The position numbers and the translations under genes were made by a program. DNA of 64,000 nucleotides from a virus. Taxonomy: Duplodnaviria; Caudoviricetes. Positions within the stretch are counted from its first letter, which is position 1. Every line of letters starts with the position of its first letter. Shown piece by piece: positions 1,723-61,557 of the stretch. The notes under the pieces are model-generated. The model made no database searches. It was not told the origin of the DNA and saw only the letters and a program-made list of their open reading frames with translations. The DNA lies in IMG/VR virus record IMGVR_UViG_3300021400_001366, positions 1 to 64,000 of that record; one strand, written 5' to 3'.

Positions 1723-2181
1723 ATGGATAACAACATCAGGATCATTGACGAGGCTGTAAAGACCCTCAACATCGTGCGCCACAACACCGAACGAGGCGAG
1801 ATCCGCAATGGCAAGGTTGACATTAACCTGTCCACGGGCTTTACGTGGCTGATCCAGTCCGCTGGACAGTGCCGCTTCTACTCTTCCGACCTGCTGTATG
1901 ACATTGAGTCGATCAATGACGCGATCCAGTCCTGCGCCGACTCTATCCTTGTGGGCGACTCCAGCTTCGAGCGGGTTTTCTACCTGGGCTTCCGTGAGAT
2001 GGGCGTTGACGGAAATTCCTTCATCTCCCACAAGATTGAGCACGGAAATTGTTATACCAGCTTCGAGGGCGTCGATGCGATCCGTCACATCTACCATGCC
2101 CTCTACTGTGTGACCGTAAACGTGGTGGACTACTACGGCCCCATGGTGCAGGTGACTTTCGAGGAAGTAGGTGTTAAGTGA
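1723..2181 (+). CDS. hypothetical protein
   Basis: ORF with AGGAGG RBS. Confidence 0.8.
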   Translation: MDNNIRIIDEAVKTLNIVRHNTERGEIRNGKVDINLSTGFTWLIQSAGQCRFYSSDLLYDIESINDAIQSCADSILVGDSSFERVFYLGFREMGVDGNSFISHKIEHGNCYTSFEGVDAIRHIYHALYCVTVNVVDYYGPMVQVTFEEVGVK

Positions 2182-26319: not shown

Positions 26320-26365
26320 CTGCGCGAATCTGAACCAAACATAGATTCTTGGGAGGTTCGCGCAG
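26320..26365 (+). promoter_or_regulatory. CRISPR leader-like inverted repeat, copy A
   Basis: ctgcgcgaatc...ACATAGA...ggttcgcgcag; paralogous to 28104-28152, both about 190 nt upstream of the first repeat. Confidence 0.6.
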
Positions 26366-26401
26366 CATTTCAGGAATGTTGGCGATTTAATTGCGCTGAC
26401 A

Positions 26402-26512
26402 TTGGGCGACCTACCGCCCATAAGCCGAGAAAGTGATACATAATGTTAAGTATAATACACTCGGTAAATCACATTTGTGCAAAGTTGAATATCAGAATTG
26501 TGCGTGTTTGCG
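26402..26512 (+). ncRNA. putative Cas12f tracrRNA, copy A
   Basis: hairpin GGGCG-ACCTAC-CGCCC whose loop complements the repeat end GTAGG; ATAAGCCGAGA...CTCGGTAA stem; homologous to 28188-28298. Confidence 0.8.
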
Positions 26513-26662
26513 GCATCAACTTACACGCAAGTGTGAGTTGTAGGAACGATCTGATAAAGTATTGCATCAACTTACGCGCAAGTGTGAGTTGTAGGCACGA
26601 TCTGTAAGTGTATTAACGTCTCTCATTCTGGCATCAACTTGCACGTAGGTGTGAGTTGTAGG
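26513..26662 (+). CRISPR. CRISPR mini-array A: three 32-nt repeats GCATCAACTTACACGCAAGTGTGAGTTGTAGG; spacers 19 and 35 nt
   Basis: repeats at 26513-26544, 26564-26595, 26631-26662; palindromic; followed by hairpin gtcggc..gccgac. Confidence 0.9.
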
Positions 26663-26720
26663 TAATGTCGGCTTTTAACTCGCCGACCAACTGAACCAGC
26701 AGTACGCGAAAGGATAATAA

Positions 26721-28097
26721 ATGAAGTTCAATAAAGTTATCAAGATTTATGCAGACCTCGACAGGTCGCAGCCTTGTAATATAGATTTCTACGGTAAGGA
26801 CAGTTTGACCTCGGTAATTCGTGGATTGCAGTATGATGTCAGAAGTCTCAAGAACCGTACCATGCGAATGGGTTACGATTACGACCAGGCGCAGTTCGAT
26901 TATTACAAGTTCATCGAACGCTGCAAGGCCGAAGTAATGGCAGAGCATTTCCCATCTGTAACTCCGCTGGATTTTTCAAAGTACAAAACCTTTGATGGGT
27001 TCATATATGACTCACTTGCAAGCGGCTATGTCAATATCAATAAAGGAATTGTGGCTTCCCTAACACGTAAGATTTGGGGTGAGTACAAAAACGACAAGAA
27101 GCAAATTGTATCTGGCGAAAAGTCGCTGCGTACATACGGCAAAGATCAGCCGATACCTATTCCCGCGAAACTCTGCAAATTGGATTTTGTGGACGATTTC
27201 AACTACGTGTTCACCGCTTCGCTGCTTTCATCTGGTTTGCAAAAAGAACTCGGCATGAATCGCGGTGGTATCAAGTTTATTCTGCGAGATCAGACCGAAA
27301 GTGAACGCGCTATCCTGAATCGGCTTGTCAGCGGCGAATACAAATTAACCGAATGTCAGCTTGCATATGACCCGCGCAAGAATCGCAGGACGAAGCAGTT
27401 TCTCGGCTGGTATTTCTGCATCGGCTATTCCTTCGAGAAAGACACGTCGAATCCAGAATTGGATAAGAACAAAATCCTTGGCGTTGACCTGGGCGAAACG
27501 AATGTAGTTTACTGCGGATGGAACGGCGACCCCTACTTCAAGAAGTATGTTCCTGGCAGCGAACTCAAAAAGTTCAATAACGTCATCGATAAGCGCAAGC
27601 GCGAACTTCAGATGAGCAGAGTTACAAGGGGAGGCGGTTCCATTGGACACGGCAGAAAATGCGCAATGAAAGTTGTGGATAAGCAAGGCGAGTATGTTCA
27701 CAACTTCATGGAAAACAAAAATTGGCATTATGCGCATTTCGTGGTTGATACAGCCATTGAAAACGGCTTCGGTGTAATCCAGATGGAGGATTTGTCGGGG
27801 ATTACGAACAGCGAAAAGTGTAATCGCCGCTGGACTTTTTACAGCTTGCAGCAAAAGATCACGCAAATTGCCACCGAGAACGGCATTGAGGTCAGGAAGA
27901 TAAACCCGAAGCACACCAGCCAGCGTTGCTCAAAATGCGGGTTTATTTCAAAGGATAACCGAAAGACACAGGCGGTTTTCAAGTGTACGGCTTGCGGGTT
28001 CATGAAAAATGCCGACCACAATGCGGCGATGAACATTTCGATTAGCAATATCGAAGAACTCATTGAACAGCAGTTGAAGGTGCAAAACGCTGCTTAA
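26721..28097 (+). CDS. cas12f: Cas12f1-like (type V-F) miniature RNA-guided nuclease, catalytic motifs intact
   Basis: 458 aa; RuvC-I ILGVDLG, RuvC-II IQMEDLS, zinc finger CSKC/CTAC, RuvC-III NADHNAAMNI, GHGR motif; arrays on both sides; no tnpA. Confidence 0.88.
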   Translation: MKFNKVIKIYADLDRSQPCNIDFYGKDSLTSVIRGLQYDVRSLKNRTMRMGYDYDQAQFDYYKFIERCKAEVMAEHFPSVTPLDFSKYKTFDGFIYDSLASGYVNINKGIVASLTRKIWGEYKNDKKQIVSGEKSLRTYGKDQPIPIPAKLCKLDFVDDFNYVFTASLLSSGLQKELGMNRGGIKFILRDQTESERAILNRLVSGEYKLTECQLAYDPRKNRRTKQFLGWYFCIGYSFEKDTSNPELDKNKILGVDLGETNVVYCGWNGDPYFKKYVPGSELKKFNNVIDKRKRELQMSRVTRGGGSIGHGRKCAMKVVDKQGEYVHNFMENKNWHYAHFVVDTAIENGFGVIQMEDLSGITNSEKCNRRWTFYSLQQKITQIATENGIEVRKINPKHTSQRCSKCGFISKDNRKTQAVFKCTACGFMKNADHNAAMNISISNIEELIEQQLKVQNAA

Positions 28098-28103
28098 CAT
28101 TCA

Positions 28104-28152
28104 CTGGTGCGAACGAATAGCTTACATAGAATCCCTGATACCTTCGCACCAG
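28104..28152 (+). promoter_or_regulatory. CRISPR leader-like inverted repeat, copy B
   Basis: ctggtgcgaa...ACATAGA...ttcgcaccag. Confidence 0.6.
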
Positions 28153-28187
28153 ATTGTAAGTATTCCGATGATTTAATTGCATTGGAA

Positions 28188-28298
28188 TCGGGCGATCTCA
28201 CGTCCATAAGCCGAGATAGTAACTTTAAAATGTGGAAGTGATACACTCGGTAATCATACTTGCGCAAAAATTGAATAGCGTGATTGTGCATGTCTGCG
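28188..28298 (+). ncRNA. putative Cas12f tracrRNA, copy B
   Basis: hairpin GGGCG-ATCTCA-CGTCC whose loop complements the repeat end TGAGA; ATAAGCCGAGA...CTCGGTAA stem. Confidence 0.8.
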
Positions 28299-28528
28299 GA
28301 TTCAATTCACGCGTGTGTACGAATTGAGAGATTCGCTTCATTCAAGCGCTCTTCCAGTTCGCCGATTCAATTCGCGCGTGTGTACGAATTGAGAGCTGGA
28401 GAAGCTCGTGATATTTCGTGATCTCGGCTGATTCAATTCGTGTGTGTGTGTGTGGATTGAGAGTCAGCAAGAGCGAAAACACACTACTGCGCTTAAGATT
28501 CAATTCACGCGTGTGTACGAATTGAGAG
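28299..28528 (+). CRISPR. CRISPR mini-array B: four repeats GATTCAATTCACGCGTGTGTACGAATTGAGAG; spacers 33, 34 and 33 nt
   Basis: repeats at 28299-28330, 28364-28395, 28430-28463 (degenerate, TG expansion) and 28497-28528. Confidence 0.95.
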
Positions 28529-37351: not shown

Positions 37352-37441
37352 GGCTACTTGGTCGAGTGGTTTAAGACGGCGCACTTGAAATGCGTTGACG
37401 GGTAATACCGTCCGTGGGTTCAAATCCTACAGTAGCCGCCA
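37352..37441 (+). tRNA. trnS: tRNA-Ser(UGA)
   Basis: cloverleaf with long variable arm, ctTGAaa, GCCA end. Confidence 0.95.
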
Positions 37442-37726
37442 CATTCAGGGTCGCGCCCTGACGATCTCGCTGCGACACAGTGAGCCAGAATGTTATCTTG
37501 TCTTGACGGAACACATACGCGGGACAGAGTGTTTAGAGCCTAGCGGTGTGGGAAGTAGTTGCAACCAAGGCAGAATGTCGGTTAAACCGCTTGCACCTTC
37601 CGGTTCATAGGGTAGCAAGTTAAGCCACTTACCTTGACTTCGGAGATTAGGTGTCGATGATGTTGTCGAGGACAAACGAAGTGGTAGCCGAATTTACACT
37701 CATGCGGTTTGTCGGCTTTTGATTAT

Positions 37727-37802
37727 GCTTCCGTAACTCAATTGGCAGAGCAGCGCACTTGTAATGCGCAGGTTGTAGGTTCAAATCCTATCGGAAGCTC
37801 CA
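37727..37802 (+). tRNA. trnT: tRNA-Thr(UGU)
   Basis: cloverleaf, ctTGTaa, CCA. Confidence 0.95.
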
Positions 37803-37803
37803 T

Positions 37804-37955
37804 CGGGAACTAGCTCAGTAGGTTAGAGCAGCGGCCTTGGGGCGGTAGTGTAAAGAGCACACTAGAAAAGCAAGAGTCTAGTAGCGTAAGGGCGGTACTT
37901 AGACGCTCCACCAATAAGCCGTGTGTCCAGAGTTCAAGTCTCTGGTTCCCGACCA
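37804..37955 (+). tRNA. trnI: tRNA-Ile(UAU) split in the anticodon loop by a 75-nt insert (halves 37804-37838 and 37914-37955)
   Basis: joined halves give a 77-nt cloverleaf: cgggaac/gttcccg, gctc/gagc, gcggc-ctT|ATaa-gccgt, cagag-ttcaagt-ctctg, ACCA. Confidence 0.88.
37839..37913 (+). ncRNA. nested tRNA-like element ending in CCA
   Basis: ggggcg/cgctcc-A-CCA acceptor, gtgt/gcac D arm, ctaga/tctag arm with 10-nt loop, taag-GGCGGTA-ctta T arm. Confidence 0.8.
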
Positions 37956-37959
37956 TCAT

Positions 37960-38043
37960 GCCCGATTGGTGGAATAGCAGACACTCGGCACTTAAAATGC
38001 CGTACCGTTAGGTGTGCAGGTGCAAATCCTGTATCGGGCACCA
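37960..38043 (+). tRNA. trnL: tRNA-Leu(UAA)
   Basis: cloverleaf with variable arm, ctTAAaa, ACCA. Confidence 0.95.
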
Positions 38044-38075
38044 TTAATATTGAATAGGAAAAGGAGACTAAGATC

Positions 38076-38711
38076 ATGCGTGAAGAAATGACTGTCCACC
38101 AGGCACTCTGCGAACTGAAGGTGCTGAGCAAGCGCGTTCAGAAGGGAATCCAGACCATTAAGCCGATCTCCGTGAAGGAACATGCTTCTTCCAAGGTTGA
38201 CGGCATGGACGTTGCCGAGTTCAAGAAGAACGCGGAAAGCGACTATGCGTCCGTGACCACCCTGATTAACCGCTGGATGGCCATTAAGGAAGCAATCAGC
38301 AAGTACAACGCTTCCAAGGTTGTCACCGTAGCCGGTAAGGAGTATACCATCGCTCAGGCGATTTGGTATATGAACTACGACCTAGCCGATAAGACGCAGT
38401 TGCTCGAACGTCTGACCAAGATGTACAACACCTGCAACGCCAACATCGAAAAGGCCAACGGCGAGAACCTTAACCGCCGCGCTGAAGCTGCTATGGAGAG
38501 CATCTACGGTGCAAAGGAAAAGGCGAACAGCGATGACTACCTCGAGGGCCTGGAAGCATACAAGACCGCACACGCGATGGAGCTGGTTGACCCGCTCAAG
38601 ATCCGTGATGTGATCGAGAAGCTGGACGAGGAAATCTCCAACTTCAAGTCTGGCGTGGACGCTGCCATCCAGATTGCGAACGCTACTACTACGATTGTGA
38701 TCGAGTATTAA
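38076..38711 (+). CDS. helical/coiled-coil protein with MTVHQALxELK N-terminus
   Basis: 211 aa, strong RBS, strongly biased codon use. Confidence 0.85.
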   Translation: MREEMTVHQALCELKVLSKRVQKGIQTIKPISVKEHASSKVDGMDVAEFKKNAESDYASVTTLINRWMAIKEAISKYNASKVVTVAGKEYTIAQAIWYMNYDLADKTQLLERLTKMYNTCNANIEKANGENLNRRAEAAMESIYGAKEKANSDDYLEGLEAYKTAHAMELVDPLKIRDVIEKLDEEISNFKSGVDAAIQIANATTTIVIEY

Positions 38712-38718
38712 GCCTTTG

Positions 38719-39098
38719 CTTGCCTATGCAGCGAAAACCGTAAACCCGCTTTCCCTCCGTCGATATGCCGTCATGACTGAGGTTAAAAGTTAAACAGACG
38801 GTAACAGAAGAAATTGATATTTTCTTAATAAGTAAATTTGATTTGCGCTATGGCGTAAGTGTAAATTTATTGATTACTGAAAATTGATTATTTCTTACTG
38901 ATTGACTGAATATTGAATATGCCGCGCGTTCTTTTTATAGGGTGAATAGAAGATTATTCAACAAAAAAGTTGGCGGCACTAATACTCAATATTGAAGGAT
39001 TTGAATACTGCTGATTGGTTATTAAAATCCATGAAGCAAGGTTCGCCATTGAAAACGGATTGGGCTTCGGTTGTCCTCATGGCTGCTGTGTAGGCAAG
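38719..39098 (+). ncRNA. putative ~380-nt structured RNA
   Basis: 14-bp closing stem 38719-38732 / 39085-39098, several internal hairpins, no ORF. Confidence 0.55.
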
Positions 39099-39157
39099 AC
39101 CGTTATAAAATTACGATTTTATCTCAATAGAAAAGCAGGAATTTAGGTACTTTTAAA

Positions 39158-39553
39158 ATGGCATTTTTCAAGAAAAAAGTGCAGTCTGAGCCTCCTAAAA
39201 TCCAGGAGCCGCCAAAGTGTACGCATAAGTTCAAAGACTTTCCGTGGTATGTTGAATACAAGTATTATCCCTGTGAGAAGCGATTTAAAATCGTAGTATA
39301 TGAACCATATGTTTGCGTCCTATGCGGGAAACGGATAGACAAAGAACTTTATAGACATGAAAGTTCTGGAACCAAGAAAGATGCAGATGCTTTAAAGGAA
39401 GCCATTGAAGAAAAGTACGGCGACAAAATTGAAGATCGTGTACTCATTGAGGATGAGATCAACGATTTGCAGTTGGTTGACCGCGAATACCTGAAATTCT
39501 ACGAGATGATAAAGACAGGCAAGTTCCATCCAATAGAACTTAAACTGGAATAA
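39158..39553 (+). CDS. hypothetical protein
   Basis: ORF with CxH and CxxC motifs. Confidence 0.7.
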   Translation: MAFFKKKVQSEPPKIQEPPKCTHKFKDFPWYVEYKYYPCEKRFKIVVYEPYVCVLCGKRIDKELYRHESSGTKKDADALKEAIEEKYGDKIEDRVLIEDEINDLQLVDREYLKFYEMIKTGKFHPIELKLE

Positions 39554-39631
39554 CAGCGTGTAGCTCAGTTTGTTTAGAGTGCTTGCCTTGGGAGCAAGAT
39601 GTCGCGAGTTAGAATCTCGCCACGCTGACCA
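39554..39631 (+). tRNA. trnP: tRNA-Pro(UGG)
   Basis: cagcgtg/cacgctg, cttgc-ctTGGga-gcaag, ACCA. Confidence 0.92.
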
Positions 39632-40073
39632 TCGGGTGAAATGATATATCCCGAAAATCCTTAACCTCTCATATATTTATACACAAAGGCGACGACAGTG
39701 CAAATATCTGAGAGTTTGCCCGACCAGGGAAGTCTCACTCGGTCATGGGAGTGTAGGCGCAACGCCAGATGCTTCGCCACTAGAAACAGGTCAACCATCT
39801 GGGTAGGACGTTGTTTACATTACTGAATTTGAGTAGGTAGTCTCTTTACTGAATTGAACGGCAGCGATCTACATGACGGACGCACTACCTGAAATGTGCC
39901 GTGGAACCCATAGCCAATCCCGATAACAAACCGCGAGGCGTAAAGAAAAACATTACAGTTCTGCGCGGAGTAGCAGCCCAATGGTGTGGAGTGGTTCTGG
40001 CTGATCTCTGAAACAAGTCAAGGCCAGAGTGTAGCGTGTGAGATATTGCGGATTGATTATGGGTTTTGTCTTT

Positions 40074-40158
40074 GGCCGCGTGGCGAAATAGGCAAACGCA
40101 CTGCGCTTAGAACGCAGCACCATAGAGCTTATGGGTTCGAGTCCCATCGCGGCCACCA
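40074..40158 (+). tRNA. trnL: tRNA-Leu(UAG)
   Basis: ggccgcg/cgcggcc, ctgcg-ctTAGaa-cgcag, TTCGA T-loop, ACCA. Confidence 0.95.
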
Positions 40159-44958: not shown

Positions 44959-45468
44959 ATGCAGTTTTTCAAAGTAAGCAGAGAGCAGTTTGAGAAGGAT
45001 TGGGAAGATTGTAAGAAGAATTTTGCTGGCTATATGACTTACGATTCTTATAACAACAATCCGTATGACGAAATAAAGCTGCCGAAACGCGCAACGAAGG
45101 GATCGGCTGGCTATGATTTCTATTCTCCGCTGGAGTTTACGCTGGCTCCTGGTGAGATTATAAAGTTCCCCACGGGTATTCGCGCGAAGATCGACAATGG
45201 ATGGGCGCTGCTGATGTTCCCACGAAGTGGTCTGGGTTTTAAGTACAGGCTTCAGCTCAATAACACGGTTGGCATTATTGATTCTGACTATTTCAGTGCC
45301 AACAATGAAGGGCATATCTTTATCAAGCTGACCAACGATGGTGACAAGCGTCTGTATGTTGAGAAGGGCGATGCCATTGTTCAGGGTATTTTCATGCCGT
45401 TTGGCGTAACGGTTGACGATGATGCAGACGGTGTGCGCGTTGGCGGTTTCGGGAGTACAAGCAAGTGA
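44959..45468 (+). CDS. dut: trimeric dUTPase
   Basis: SAGYDF, PRSGLG, GIIDSDY, QGIF, RVGGFGST. Confidence 0.95.
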   Translation: MQFFKVSREQFEKDWEDCKKNFAGYMTYDSYNNNPYDEIKLPKRATKGSAGYDFYSPLEFTLAPGEIIKFPTGIRAKIDNGWALLMFPRSGLGFKYRLQLNNTVGIIDSDYFSANNEGHIFIKLTNDGDKRLYVEKGDAIVQGIFMPFGVTVDDDADGVRVGGFGSTSK

Positions 45469-46490
45469 CACTTAAAGAGATTTCCGAGAAGATCACGTCG
45501 GATGAGTATGGTTTCCTCTATTCCAATGAGAACCTTTGCGAAAATCTGATTCTTGTTGGGCTTGGAGGAAGCCACGCTTACGGTACAAACACAGATGAAA
45601 GTGATCTGGATATTCGCGGGATTGCAACAAATACAAGGCATAACATTCTGGTTGGCAAAGATTTTGAACAGGTCGTAGATGTTAAGACGGACACGACGAT
45701 CTATTCCTTTGACAAGATGATTAAGCTGCTGTGCGCGTGTAATCCTAACTGCATTGAGCTTGTCGGGCTAAAACCAGAACACTATCTGTATATCACGGAT
45801 GTCGGTCAGTATATCGTAGATCATGCTTCCATGTTCTTGAGCAAGAGGGCAATCCATTCATTCGGCGGTTATGCCAATGCTCAATTGCGGAGATTGGACA
45901 ACAAGGCGGCAAAGGATGCCGACCAGGTAGAGCGCGAAAAGCACATTCTTGAAAGTCTCAAAAATGCGTCGTATAGCTTTAAGGATAGGTACAGTGATGC
46001 TCCAAGCGATGCGATCAAGCTCTATACGGATGAATCCTCACGGGATGAATTTGAAGAAGAGATTTTCATGGATATTGTCTTGCATCATTATCCGCTGAGA
46101 GATTACGCCGGTATGATTTCAGAGTACCAGTCGATCATCAGGCAGTATAACAAATGCGGCAGACGCAATGACCGAGCGTATACGCATGGTAAAATCGCCA
46201 AACACATGATGCATCTGGTCAGGCTGTATCTAATGTGCTTCGATATTCTGATTGACGGCAAGGTTGTAACTTATCGTGAGAAGGAACACGACATGCTGAT
46301 GGACATTCGCAATGGCAAGTTCCTGGATGAGAATAATCAGCCGAAGAAAGTGTTCTATGAGCTGGTTGACGAGCTGGACAGCAAGCTGGCCTACTGGAAG
46401 GAACATACCGACCTTCCTGATTCTCCAGATATGTCGAAGGTTGAAGCACTGGTAGAAAAGGTAAACGGTGATATTTGTGGCAAAGAGTAA
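45465..46490 (+). CDS. DNA polymerase beta-superfamily nucleotidyltransferase (RlaP/YcgL-like)
   Basis: GGSHAYGTNTDESDLDIRG; NPNCIE; KHMMHLVRL. Confidence 0.88.
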   Translation: MTLKEISEKITSDEYGFLYSNENLCENLILVGLGGSHAYGTNTDESDLDIRGIATNTRHNILVGKDFEQVVDVKTDTTIYSFDKMIKLLCACNPNCIELVGLKPEHYLYITDVGQYIVDHASMFLSKRAIHSFGGYANAQLRRLDNKAAKDADQVEREKHILESLKNASYSFKDRYSDAPSDAIKLYTDESSRDEFEEEIFMDIVLHHYPLRDYAGMISEYQSIIRQYNKCGRRNDRAYTHGKIAKHMMHLVRLYLMCFDILIDGKVVTYREKEHDMLMDIRNGKFLDENNQPKKVFYELVDELDSKLAYWKEHTDLPDSPDMSKVEALVEKVNGDICGKE

Positions 46491-46848
46491 TTCTTTTACC
46501 TGTCCGAAGTGTGGTTCTACATCATTCGATTTAAGACAGGCGGGAAGGTATACCGAGATCGTATGTCGGGATTGCGGTACATTTATACGCTACCTGAGAA
46601 ACGGCAACGACATTAAACGGGCGTTTGAGATGCTGCGAAAAGAAGGTAGAGACATGAGGGCGCAAAAGGTCATCAAGAAAATTGGTGATGTTATAACGGT
46701 GCGCTGCGATCTCTGCTTTACCATCTTATACAGTAGCGCATTTCCTCCTATTCCTAATGGTCAATACGACGTACTGAAAGCAAACTACTGCCCGAATTGT
46801 GGCAAAGAGTTTGTCGATGAACAGAAAATATTCACAAAACCGACGTAA
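46468..46848 (+). CDS. zinc-ribbon protein
   Basis: CPKC, CRDC, CDLC, CPNC. Confidence 0.65.
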   Translation: MIFVAKSNSFTCPKCGSTSFDLRQAGRYTEIVCRDCGTFIRYLRNGNDIKRAFEMLRKEGRDMRAQKVIKKIGDVITVRCDLCFTILYSSAFPPIPNGQYDVLKANYCPNCGKEFVDEQKIFTKPT

Positions 46849-47092: not shown

Positions 47093-49453
47093 ATGTACTG
47101 CGGGTATATCACGACGATCAAAGAAATTCATAAACACTCAAACGCTGATAGGCTGGCCTGTGCGACGATTTTCGGCAACAATGTCATTGTCGATCTTACA
47201 TATGAACCTGGTAAGCGCGTCGTGTATTTTCCGGTTGATGGTCAGCTCAGCGAAGAGTTCTGCAAGGACAACGATTTGGTAAGGCGTAAGGACGAAAGCG
47301 GCAAGCAGGTTGGCGGCTATCTCGATCCTGATAAGCGTAACATCAGGGCAATCAAGCTGCGTGGCGAGAAGTCCGAGGGTCTGGCGCTACCGATTGAAAG
47401 CCTGTCAAAGTATTGCAACGTAGACGAGTTGAAGGACGGCGACCAGATCACCATTCTCAACGGGCATGAAATCTGCTGTAAGTACATTCCTAAACGCGAT
47501 CATAGCGGTGGAGGCTCTGGCGGCAACAGGACGCGGAGCAACAAAGAACGTGATAAGCAGGAGTGGCCGCTGTTTGAGCAGCATGTCGAGACTGAACAGC
47601 TTGCTTATAATGAGAGCGCATTTAAGCCCGGTGATACCTGTTACATCACGCTGAAGATGCATGGTTGTTTCTCATCTGGATGTAGGGTTAATCTATGGGC
47701 TGGTGGAAGATCGAAAACTATGTCGCAAGTTCAACCTGGCGACATCGTTATAGGTTTCAAAGATGGTAAATTAGTGCCATCTAAAGTTCTTGATAAGTAT
47801 AATAATGGCAAGGAAACTGAATGGCAAAAGATAATCATAGAAAGAAATGGAATGAACGGCGAAAAGTATTCAAAAATCCTTTGTACACCAGATCATTTAT
47901 TCTATGATTGGAAATTGCAAAAATATATTCGCGCAGACTCAATAAGGGCTGGCGATGAGATAATGATGGTCAAACAGACACCAATCCTATCAAGAGAAAT
48001 AAAGTCTGTGCTGCTCGGTATGTACTTAGGTGATGGACATTATGTAGAAAGAAACCGTGTTTCAAAACTTGAGTTTTCTCATAAAATAGATCATTCGTCA
48101 TATTTAGAATACATTGAAAAAATGTGCAACGGCTTGGTTAAAGTCGAAGATCGAATATATATATCTGGATATGGCACACAGATGATGAGGGCAAAGACAA
48201 AAGAATGCGTTGACATATATGACTTTTTCAATCTGTGGATTAATAAAACCGGAGGACACAAACTAACTGATAGCATCTTGGATTACTTCGATGAAATATC
48301 TCTAGCATATTTGTATATGGATGATGGTAGTTTGTCACACTCATCAATACAAACAGATAGGGCGGCAATTGCCATTTGCGATTATGACGATCATGATGCT
48401 ACACTTATAAGCAAATGTATAAGTAATCTAGGGATTGAGAATGTTCTATTTAAAGACCCTGATGGTTATAATAGGATAAGAATAAACAGGGAAGCATCTA
48501 TAAAACTGTTCGACATGATTTCACGATATATACCGGCAGTTATGAGGTATAAACTTCCTGAAGAATATCGTAACAGGGATTATATAGACACCCCGTTTGA
48601 TTTGGAATATGGCTACAAGCCGATCATTGTTAAGGTTGATTCAAGTGAACATGAGACACATAGAAAGATGGATAAATTCGATCTGCACACAGAAACGAAT
48701 AATTATGTTGTAGGCGGTATACTTGTACATAATTCGTCTGGGCGTACTAGCAACACCATCCATGTTCAGCAGAAGAAGCAAACCCTGATGGATAAGATTC
48801 TGCATCGACCTCCGAAGTATGAGCTTTCTTATGATGTAATCAGTGGAACACGGCGTACAGTCCTCAGAGACTTCGACCATGGCTATTATGGCAACGACGC
48901 TTTCCGCAAGGGATTCCATGATTTCTTCGCTGAAAGACTTCCTAAAAATACAGAAATTTTTTACGAGATCGTCGGGTGGGTTGACGAGAACACGCCTATC
49001 ATGGGTCGCTGCAAGAACAAACTCATCAAAGACCCTGAGTTCGTCAAGCAGTATGGCGAAGAAACTGTTTTCCACTATGGTTGCAAACCTGGTGAAAGTC
49101 GCTGTTTCGTTTACCGCATGACCATGACGAATCAGGATGGATTCACCGTCGAGATTCCTACGGAGCAATGCAAGCTGCTGTGTGAAAAGATGGGCGTTGA
49201 GTTCGTGCCTATCTTCGAGAAGTTCTTCTTTACGACTTGGGACGATCTCATGCAGCGCGTAGAGAAGTATTACGATGGCCCCGATCCGATTGGCAAGACG
49301 CATATCCGTGAAGGTGTGGTTGTGCGAATCGAGAACCGAGAAAAATTTGAAGCGTATAAGCATAAAAACTTTAGCTTCAAATGCCTCTCTGGGATCATTG
49401 CCGATAACACTGATGCCGACAAGGTTGACGAAGAAATCCTGAGCGAGATGTAA
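47093..49453 (+). CDS. ATP-dependent RNA ligase (DRB0094/Rnl2-like, N-terminal OB-like domain) containing an intein
   Basis: HSNADRL, KLRGEKSEG; motif I TLKMHG|SS restored by splicing; FYEIVG, REGVVVR, YKHK. Confidence 0.88.
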   Translation: MYCGYITTIKEIHKHSNADRLACATIFGNNVIVDLTYEPGKRVVYFPVDGQLSEEFCKDNDLVRRKDESGKQVGGYLDPDKRNIRAIKLRGEKSEGLALPIESLSKYCNVDELKDGDQITILNGHEICCKYIPKRDHSGGGSGGNRTRSNKERDKQEWPLFEQHVETEQLAYNESAFKPGDTCYITLKMHGCFSSGCRVNLWAGGRSKTMSQVQPGDIVIGFKDGKLVPSKVLDKYNNGKETEWQKIIIERNGMNGEKYSKILCTPDHLFYDWKLQKYIRADSIRAGDEIMMVKQTPILSREIKSVLLGMYLGDGHYVERNRVSKLEFSHKIDHSSYLEYIEKMCNGLVKVEDRIYISGYGTQMMRAKTKECVDIYDFFNLWINKTGGHKLTDSILDYFDEISLAYLYMDDGSLSHSSIQTDRAAIAICDYDDHDATLISKCISNLGIENVLFKDPDGYNRIRINREASIKLFDMISRYIPAVMRYKLPEEYRNRDYIDTPFDLEYGYKPIIVKVDSSEHETHRKMDKFDLHTETNNYVVGGILVHNSSGRTSNTIHVQQKKQTLMDKILHRPPKYELSYDVISGTRRTVLRDFDHGYYGNDAFRKGFHDFFAERLPKNTEIFYEIVGWVDENTPIMGRCKNKLIKDPEFVKQYGEETVFHYGCKPGESRCFVYRMTMTNQDGFTVEIPTEQCKLLCEKMGVEFVPIFEKFFFTTWDDLMQRVEKYYDGPDPIGKTHIREGVVVRIENREKFEAYKHKNFSFKCLSGIIADNTDADKVDEEILSEM
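47666..48733 (+). mobile_element. 356-aa intein with LAGLIDADG homing endonuclease
   Basis: starts CFSSG, CTPDH block B, LGMYLGDG and AYLYMDDG, ends VHN followed by Ser; AT-rich. Confidence 0.93.
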
Positions 49454-60579: not shown

Positions 60580-61557
60580 ATGAACAGCTATCCGATTTTC
60601 ATTATGATGATGGGCTTGAGCGGCAGCGGCAAGAGTACGCTTGCAAGCAATTTGTACATAGATGAAAATGGCAACATTGACATCCGCGAAGAGCCGAACG
60701 CTACCGGCGATCCCGTTATTCACTCTTCCGATAATCTCAGGGCTGAATTGTTTGGTGATGTGAATAATCAGAAGAAAAACGACGAGCTGTTCATTGAACT
60801 TCATCGAAGGATTAAGCGCGACTTGGCGGCTGGCCATAACGTTATCTATGATGCGACCAACCTCAACAAGAAGCGCAGGATCGCTTTCCTTGAAGAACTC
60901 AGACGTATTCACTGCGTCAAGTATTGCTTGGCCGTAATGACTACCTTTGAAGATTGCAAGAAGAACAATGCCAAACGCGAACGTCATGTTCCCGAAGATG
61001 TTATCAAGCGGCAGTTTATGAACTGGCAACCTCCGCACTATCATGAGGGCTTTGATAACATCTGGCTTGTTTTCCCTTGCAGCGATGGTTTTAATCCTGA
61101 TTATTATGTCCATGATGCAAACTACGACAATATGAAGAAGTTCAATCAGGATAACAGTCACCACGCTTTGTCGCTGGGAGATCATTGCTTTGAAACGTTT
61201 AAGTCTTGCAGAAAGTGGGACGAAGAAAACAGCGTTCTCCAAACGGCGGCTTATCTTCATGACGTTGGCAAGCTCTATACTAAGACCTATGTCAACGCGA
61301 AAGGCGAGAAGGACGGTCAAGCGCATTACTACCAGCATGAATGTGTCGGGGCTTATGTCGCCGCTTTCATACTGAACAGCACGGGCTATCCCGTCAATGA
61401 GACTCTTGATGCTATCAACATGATCTTCTACCACATGCGGCCATATCTGGCTTGGAAGGATTCTGAAAAGTCAATGGAGAGAGACAAGAAACTCATTGGC
61501 GAGAAGATGTTTAACGACGTAATGCTGTTACATAAAGCCGATGTAGCAGCGCATTAA
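60580..61557 (+). CDS. polynucleotide kinase-like P-loop (AAA_33) plus HD-domain protein
   Basis: GLSGSGKST, SSD, YDATN; H..SLGDH...LHDVGK...HE. Confidence 0.88.
   Translation: MNSYPIFIMMMGLSGSGKSTLASNLYIDENGNIDIREEPNATGDPVIHSSDNLRAELFGDVNNQKKNDELFIELHRRIKRDLAAGHNVIYDATNLNKKRRIAFLEELRRIHCVKYCLAVMTTFEDCKKNNAKRERHVPEDVIKRQFMNWQPPHYHEGFDNIWLVFPCSDGFNPDYYVHDANYDNMKKFNQDNSHHALSLGDHCFETFKSCRKWDEENSVLQTAAYLHDVGKLYTKTYVNAKGEKDGQAHYYQHECVGAYVAAFILNSTGYPVNETLDAINMIFYHMRPYLAWKDSEKSMERDKKLIGEKMFNDVMLLHKADVAAH

Follow-up and report, generated by a model that had tools for sequence, protein, structure and literature searches.

Type V-F1 effectors act as asymmetric homodimers on one guide RNA and cleave double-stranded DNA in dependence on a protospacer-adjacent motif; TnpB elements operate with a single omega RNA bearing one guide at the transposon end, have no array and often carry TnpA nearby. 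Adaptation genes are present in some V-F loci and missing in V-U3-like ones, and they are not defining for the type. In AsCas12f1, for which 8J12 is cited as the structure (PMC11246509), the trans-activating CRISPR RNA (tracrRNA; CRISPR, short palindromic repeats that are clustered and regularly interspaced) features a hairpin with a 6-nucleotide (nt) loop followed by AUAAGCCGAGA...CUCGGUAAGG, and the repeat end is the complement of the loop, the pair being GUUCA:UGAAC; OsCas12f1 follows the same tracrRNA plan with a 32-nt repeat (PMC10090079 Suppl. Data 1). Both duplexes of repeat and anti-repeat in AsCas12f1, the long one and the short one, are fully reprogrammable (Jiao et al. 2024, PMC11246509), and activity is lost when the long anti-repeat, the short one or both are scrambled (PMC11246509). 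Here we describe a Cas12f locus in a 64,000-nt stretch of phage DNA (the window), which makes up the first 64 kb of the 137,609-bp IMG/VR virus record IMGVR_UViG_3300021400_001366 (CheckV 89% complete) from a gut or rumen-type metagenome. One cas12f gene is situated between two paralogous tracrRNA-array cassettes, A upstream and B downstream, all on the + strand. The locus is of a known type, a V-F1 Cas12f with pseudoknotted tracrRNA (former V-U3-like), in a new arrangement that is phage-borne and adaptation-less.

One cas12f gene between two tracrRNA-array cassettes

The hairpin loop of each cassette pairs with the repeat end of its own array over 5 bp and with that of the other array over 2 bp. 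Loop A pairs with the last five nt of repeat A (ACCUAC:GUAGG) and loop B with UGAGA of repeat B (AUCUCA:UGAGA). We consider it likely that both guide sets serve the one Cas12f as separate pools, because each loop matches only the repeats of its own array. Both cassettes look functional, since the scaffold is conserved in both, a sibling phage keeps both and the stems of B show compensatory changes. The features of the locus are the following (MFE, minimum free energy):

26320 to 26365, + strand: cassette A stem 1, an inverted repeat; 10 pairs, 94% paired; the A type shows a double change from U-A to C-G
26375 to 26403, + strand: cassette A stem 2 with the conserved 9-nt loop AUUUAAUUG; 7/9 pairs double-changed (12 cassettes), 99% of cells paired, present in the MFE fold
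26404 to 26419, + strand: cassette A pseudoknot hairpin, loop ACCUAC at 26409-26414; 5 contiguous Watson-Crick pairs with the GUAGG repeat end
26420 to 26465, + strand: cassette A stem 4, AUAAGCCGAGA ... CUCGGU; helix 5 is 100% and helix 6 94% paired, 4/4 inner pairs double-changed
26466 to 26491, + strand: cassette A long anti-repeat; pairs with nt 1-25 of repeat A, -21.5 kcal/mol
26492 to 26512, + strand: cassette A linker from anti-repeat to first repeat; short second complement to the repeat middle, ends UUUGC
26513 to 26662, + strand: CRISPR array A, three 32-nt repeats ending GUUGUAGG; spacers 26545-26563 (19 nt) and 26596-26630 (35 nt)
26721 to 28097, + strand: cas12f, 458 amino acids, type V-F1; Pfam and PDB matches, invariant catalytic and zinc residues
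28104 to 28152, + strand: cassette B stem 1, an inverted repeat; part of the covariance-model match
28162 to 28188, + strand: cassette B stem 2; compensatory changes against A and other cassettes
28190 to 28205, + strand: cassette B pseudoknot hairpin, loop AUCUCA at 28195-28200; 5 bp with UGAGA of the repeat end
28206 to 28251, + strand: cassette B stem 4; alignment fold, MFE fold and covariation count
28252 to 28277, + strand: cassette B long anti-repeat; -15.3 kcal/mol with its own repeat
28299 to 28528, + strand: CRISPR array B, four repeats ending AUUGAGAG; spacers 28331-28363, 28396-28429 and 28464-28496, repeat 3 irregular

Cassette A consists of a module of 193 nt (26320-26512) and repeats of 32 nt each starting at 26513, 26564 and 26631, with spacers of 19 and 35 nt. 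Cassette B, which begins 7 nt past the cas12f stop codon, consists of a module of 195 nt (28104-28298) and repeats starting at 28299, 28364, 28430 and 28497, with spacers of 33, 34 and 33 nt. Between the two modules, the alignment offset is constant at 1786 nt. A sequence-only reading of this stretch had noted the same module of about 190 nt on either side running straight into the first repeat, two markedly different 32-nt repeat types, loops and further segments complementary to each array's own repeat, a nuclease with all three RuvC acidic residues and the zinc finger, and the lack of cas1 and cas2 in the window. These observations are borne out: the repeats are about 60% alike, the 34-nt repeat 3 of array B being the one exception in size, and no family match to Cas1, Cas2 or Cas4 is present anywhere in the 137.6-kb record. 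The record likewise gives no match to a Y1 transposase (tnpA) and contains one single PF07282-type effector above cut-off. In the bacterial relatives, cas1, cas2 and cas4 were not found within 3 kb of the locus.

Comparison of nuclease and scaffolds with described systems

The cas12f product contains a Cas12f1-like TNB domain (PF07282, E 9e-21) and finds its best PDB match in the Cas12f chain 9nzq (433 amino acids, E 2e-71). Chains 8j12, 7wju and 8dzj, which are of AsCas12f length, yield E values of about 1e-68, the Cas12f chains lie between 2e-71 and 7e-68, and TnpB structures score far below them. Chain 9nzq is one of the structures in the set by Guan et al. (bioRxiv 2025.08.14.670346 / PMC13186708); in the alignment its sequence corresponds to the OsCas12f1 protein given in PMC10090079, and its length matches that of OsCas12f, too. 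RuvC residues D256, E356 and D432 as well as cysteines C403, C406, C422 and C425 are invariant in 18 homologues of the clade and align with their counterparts in AsCas12f-type and 9nzq-type chains. Compared with its sibling from locus L002, the gene exhibits 84 synonymous and 38 non-synonymous codon differences. On account of the residues invariant in 18 clade members and the synonymous excess, the nuclease looks intact and under purifying selection. Outside the phage clade, identity to the nearest homologues is 36-40%, and in a protein tree rooted with these the protein falls into the Cas12f1 clade, which together with the PDB matches settles its family as Cas12f1 and not TnpB. With its split RuvC domain and zinc finger it is an effector of the small kind (400-550 amino acids) adjoined by arrays of three and four repeats with unique spacers, and in silico its tracrRNAs form a long duplex and a pseudoknot with the repeat 3' end, as in AsCas12f1. 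An IS200/IS605 TnpB-omega RNA element is ruled out by the repeat-spacer arrays on both sides, the lack of a Y1 transposase and the position in the Cas12f1 clade.

For the RNA, we used fetched contigs of close homologues (protein identity 54-92%), in each of which the same module adjoins the array. RNAalifold yields four stems common to 12 related cassettes. Over these, 95.9% of the cells are paired, compared with 33-48% when partners are slid by 1-3 columns; double-sided changes occur in 18 pairs, and none of 500 shuffles reached the observed covariation score. A covariance model of the core covers both copies, giving 146.9 bits for A (26320-26469) and 152.3 bits for B (28105-28255), and these are exactly the two matches in the 137.6-kb record. 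Modules A and B hold every position invariant in the family and score as high as single-cassette relatives. No Rfam family matches the region. Stem 3 of B shows a double compensatory change in the sibling. The arms of stem 1 (GYGCGAAY ... GGTTCGCRC) are near-invariant in sequence family-wide, unlike the other stems, and in Bacillus phage Mgbh1 (L024:2465-2495) and Alicyclobacillus phage MMB025 (L025:2174-2225) a stem-1-like element resides between the array and the gene start and not at the tracrRNA 5' end. The linkers (26492-26512 and 28278-28298) contain a further short segment complementary to the repeat's 5' half, which varies together with the repeat subtype (A and B of the window, A and B of the sibling), and share a conserved UUUGC end.

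As a miniature RuvC and zinc-finger effector, the phage protein thus resembles AsCas12f1 (8J12) and OsCas12f1 (E 1e-68 to 2e-71). The likeness extends to the RNA, in which a loop hairpin that pseudoknots the repeat 3' end is followed by a AUAAGCCGAGA...CUCGGUAAG stem and a long anti-repeat; hairpin A sits directly 5' of AUAAGCCGAGA as in the published AsCas12f1 tracrRNA. A similar stem had been ascribed to the AsCas12f1 scaffold in the sequence-only reading, which is correct: the published listing shows the same plan (PMC10090079 Suppl. Data 1). The 32-nt repeats are shared with OsCas12f1 and Ob2Cas12f1. Unlike AsCas12f1 and OsCas12f1, the system is carried by a phage and has two diverged scaffold-array cassettes around one gene; its anti-repeat directly follows stem 4 and the tracrRNA runs into the first repeat. 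The additional 5' stems 1 and 2 are not part of the published single-guide listings for the Os and As enzymes. A parallel to the dual layout is provided by the Rptr and PUMA tracrRNAs of AsCas12f1 (PMC11246509), where anti-repeats were changed jointly with the repeat for one Cas12f and mismatched combinations were inactive; those versions are engineered, whereas the phage versions are natural and coexist in one genome.

The combination of an effector and short arrays without cas1 and cas2 is reminiscent of the virus-encoded CRISPR-Cas systems lacking adaptation modules that are treated in passages of a review (PMC11656645), where their presumed role is inter-virus competition; two tracrRNA classes per effector are not mentioned in those passages. 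More than one tracrRNA candidate per locus has been described for Cas9 loci with a second tracrRNA (bioRxiv 10.1101/2020.09.02.279885), which belong to a different effector family and for which the parts of that preprint considered here do not describe co-varying, array-specific docking loops. Similarities to the omega RNA (reRNA) of TnpB comprise the RNA core of stem, pseudoknot and 3' guide, the location of cassette B 7 nt past the stop codon, which is the position of an omega RNA, and the solo scaffold-repeat-guide units of a relative, L016. Unlike TnpB, the phage locus comprises genuine arrays of repeats and spacers as well as a separate anti-repeat, and neither TnpA nor transposon ends were identified. 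A limited literature search turned up no Cas12f for which two natural tracrRNA classes are described.

Separation of the two guide sets and rival explanations

The loop and the repeat end covary across relatives in six classes. In one register, UCUCA:UGAGA is the class of most phages, UUUCA:UGAAA that of three chromosomal loci of Clostridia, UUCCA:UGGAA that of L026 and UCCCA:UGGGA that of L016. Class A, CCUAC:GUAGG, is shifted by one nt and thereby includes the final nt of the repeat, an arrangement also found in the published AsCas12f1 sequences. As the same two loop and repeat positions vary jointly across relatives, we take this to be clean evidence for a real and selected interaction. In both modules, the long anti-repeat that stands directly after stem 4 is an almost full-length complement of its own repeat. 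Measured against shuffled repeats, the match gives z = -6.3 for A (0/1000 as good) and z = -3.5 for B, and across lineages the long anti-repeats match their own repeats and covary. Judging from AsCas12f1, with its reprogrammable duplexes and inactive scrambled anti-repeats, a pseudoknot mismatch alone should be enough to block a guide and the protein should be indifferent to the class loaded. These reprogramming results make one effector with two non-cross-talking guide sets mechanistically credible.

The dual layout is shared with a sibling phage locus (L002/L003, L002 protein 92% identical), which keeps both cassettes with different spacers; between the window and L002, tracrRNA core A is 98%, core B 92-93% and the cas12f gene 89% identical. 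In the rooted protein tree, the basal phage lineages L012 and L013 and several others have one class-B cassette upstream of the gene, a derived subclade (with the three bacterial loci, L014 and L016 among its members) has a class-B cassette downstream, and cassettes on both sides are present in the window and the sibling only. Another two-cassette arrangement was found in Alicyclobacillus phage MMB025 (PV686781; L025:1462-2240), in which two tandem paralogous cassettes precede a Cas12f-like gene annotated as 'transposase'. Their repeats differ and their anti-repeats are cognate (-29.8 and -26.4 kcal/mol for cognate, -24.7 and -18.6 kcal/mol for cross pairing) and set directly against the first repeat in both; no convincing pseudoknot was found in these cassettes. 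Hypothetical coding sequences annotated on the opposite strand overlap the MMB025 arrays; they are likely to be spurious. In Bacillus phage Mgbh1, a compact tracrRNA and two repeats lie upstream of a gene annotated as 'transposase-like'. No close relative was found in GTDB species genomes; in IMG/VR, a search with the single protein gave nothing and one with an alignment retrieved L026 as the sole close relative. The affinities of tracr A are with cassettes located upstream in other phages, and tracr B groups weakly with the downstream bacterial type. We reject a recent intragenomic duplication in view of the A/B core identity of 61%, the cores being no closer to each other than to cassettes of other phages. 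This identity and the grouping with different cassette types argue for an old duplication or for acquisition by recombination.

Several observations speak against two separate pools. The long anti-repeats are not orthogonal: that of B pairs more strongly with repeat A (-18.6 kcal/mol) than with its own repeat, that of A reaches -14.5 kcal/mol with repeat B, and the long duplex of B itself is weak in this phage. It is the 5-bp pseudoknot alone that discriminates A from B, so the separation depends entirely on this interaction because the long anti-repeats cross-pair. The proposal of two orthogonal scaffolds made in the sequence-only reading is supported for the docking loops but not for the long anti-repeats. 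Furthermore, the fused B RNA lacks the expected hairpin at minimum free energy (z = -2.05), array A has only two spacers, one of them a truncated, diverged copy of the other, and no protospacer was found for any spacer in its own genome, the fetched loci or INPHARED phages, or for two spacer starts in IMG/VR. In view of the distance between the two cores, one cassette may have been acquired by recombination and is not necessarily adapted to this protein. If so, only one cassette could work with this Cas12f, the other being a recombination-derived passenger or a decaying relic. Separate origins are indeed suggested by the different affiliations of the A and B cores, repeat 3 of B is irregular, array A is short with its truncated duplicate spacer, and the B anti-repeat fits the B repeats of the sibling (-24.7 kcal/mol) far better than its own (-15.3 kcal/mol), for which reason the B array of the window looks as if it had drifted or been exchanged. 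We nevertheless regard a single working cassette as unlikely, given that both scaffolds hold all family-invariant positions and score like those of single-cassette relatives, that the sibling keeps both despite an 11% nucleotide difference in cas12f, with compensatory change in B stem 3 and a near-identical A, and that, according to the AsCas12f1 data, the protein does not read the duplex sequences (PMC11246509).

It is quite improbable that one of the cassettes serves or sabotages a chromosomal Cas12f of the host, either by hijacking it with phage guides or as an RNA decoy. Close homologues with the same scaffold do occur in Clostridia chromosomes (L010, L011 and L015), phage-encoded guide mimics acting on Cas9 have been reported in two preprints, and passages of the review cited above treat viral mini-arrays exploiting host systems as established (PMC11656645). 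The phage, however, has its own intact effector between the cassettes, the bacterial loci use the third class, UUUCA:UGAAA, which forms only 3 bp with the phage loops, and a full tracrRNA plus array exceeds the needs of a decoy. To the idea that a host type I (I-C-like) system uses the arrays, with the tracrRNA similarity incidental to array function, we attach hardly any probability. The 32-nt palindromic repeats with an AUUGA-type 3' end fold into internal hairpins of -6 to -16 kcal/mol that show covariation, and their size and 3' ends resemble those of I-C repeats. Still, the covariation of loop with repeat end and of anti-repeat with repeat over six classes ties the arrays to the tracrRNAs, the published repeats of OsCas12f1 and Ob2Cas12f1 are of the same 32-nt kind (PMC10090079), and a host I-C Cas1-Cas2-Cas4 employed for adaptation only would suit two guide pools for one Cas12f just as well.

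With two pools, the whole + strand region would probably be transcribed by read-through from the surrounding gene cluster. Each tracrRNA would engage its own array's repeats by way of the long duplex and of the 5-bp pseudoknot that the loop forms with the repeat 3' end. By folding back onto the anti-repeat in cis, the first repeat could give a natural single guide, and later repeats would be served in trans. The Cas12f dimer may recognize the shared scaffold shape and could therefore load either set, and the pools would stay separate because the tracrRNA of one set forms no pseudoknot on the repeat of the other. Interference with competing phages or other mobile elements is the likely role, and the arrays probably owe their renewal to host adaptation enzymes acting in trans or to phage-phage recombination.

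A natural fusion of tracrRNA, repeat and spacer is plausible in view of the topology, the lack of a promoter or terminator between tracrRNA and array, and the fused solo units of L016. Anti-repeat and first repeat confront each other, 3' end to 5' end, over a linker of 21 nt, which is the topology of an engineered single guide, and tracr A fused to its first repeat folds as a single guide that keeps the repeat end available to the loop (z = -4.4). A scan for sigma-70 promoters and intrinsic terminators gave nothing convincing in or between the cassettes, with match counts at shuffle level. L016 contains two scaffold units, L016:3855-4050 (+) and L016:1020-1211 (-), each closed onto a single repeat-like piece with loop GUCCCA and repeat end UGGGA; one is located directly after the gene and the other 1.3 kb upstream on the opposite strand. 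Both units have the look of naturally occurring single-guide genes and are reminiscent of omega RNA.

The locus offers a natural case of one Cas12f with two coexisting pseudoknot codes, a situation that tracrRNA reprogramming had made artificially, and the six loop/repeat-end classes form a ready covariation series for the short anti-repeat rule. The locus also suggests that tracrRNA-plus-array units move as modules among phages and their Clostridia hosts. MMB025 and A. acidoterrestris MMB007 represent a cultured phage-host pair with a two-cassette Cas12f locus, and natural non-cross-talking scaffolds for one miniature nuclease could aid multiplexing. A tentative and rather doubtful generalization would be that phage Cas12f systems repeatedly evolve mutually exclusive docking codes in the form of loop/repeat-end pairs and stack two or more per effector. 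Guides might then be partitioned among co-resident host, competing-phage and own systems, the codes possibly shielding against RNA decoys or tracrRNA cross-talk, and cassettes would be swapped as self-contained modules.

Arrays, spacers and neighbouring genes

Every relative whose flanking sequence is long enough has CRISPR arrays. Spacer A2, at the trailer, is identical in the relative L006, which also shares the trailing sequence; the leader-end spacers differ in L002 and L006, both of which feature a second repeat subtype at the leader end. Array turnover is thus located at the tracrRNA-proximal end, a pattern that fits polarised acquisition by host enzymes or array recombination. Spacer A1 (26545-26563) is a truncated, diverged copy of A2 (26596-26630) with 14/19 identical positions. 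Repeat 3 of array B (28430-28463) is 34 nt long with a GT run, and the pairing of its 3' half with the B anti-repeat surpasses that of the other three repeats. Within the 137.6-kb genome itself, the best spacer match is 22/35, which is the level of shuffled spacers, and a 21/30 match of spacer A2 to the start of a helicase gene is at chance level as well. The only protospacer-like match comes from L012, the last spacer of which (2896-2930) matches a 60-amino-acid gene upstream of its own cassette (2130-2162, minus strand) with 2-3 mismatches and a CTTG 5' flank. This would fit a spacer that targets the allele of a related phage, with the own copy escaping through the mismatches.

The gene content of the record is of phage type (PHROG matches), with an integrase, an RNA ligase, a polynucleotide kinase, a nucleotidyltransferase and methyltransferases. 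A weak match to the Cas12f/TnpB zinc-ribbon family at 46459-46581 of the window stays below threshold (17 bits) and contains an internal stop; it is probably a zinc ribbon of unrelated kind. At 47093-49453, an open reading frame of 786 amino acids joins an RNA ligase to a segment of LAGLIDADG homing endonuclease. In its vicinity are the five tRNA genes of the record (37352-40158), a nucleotidyltransferase (45465-46490) and a gene resembling polynucleotide kinase (60580-61557), and together with the ligase they are suggestive of a tRNA-repair module.

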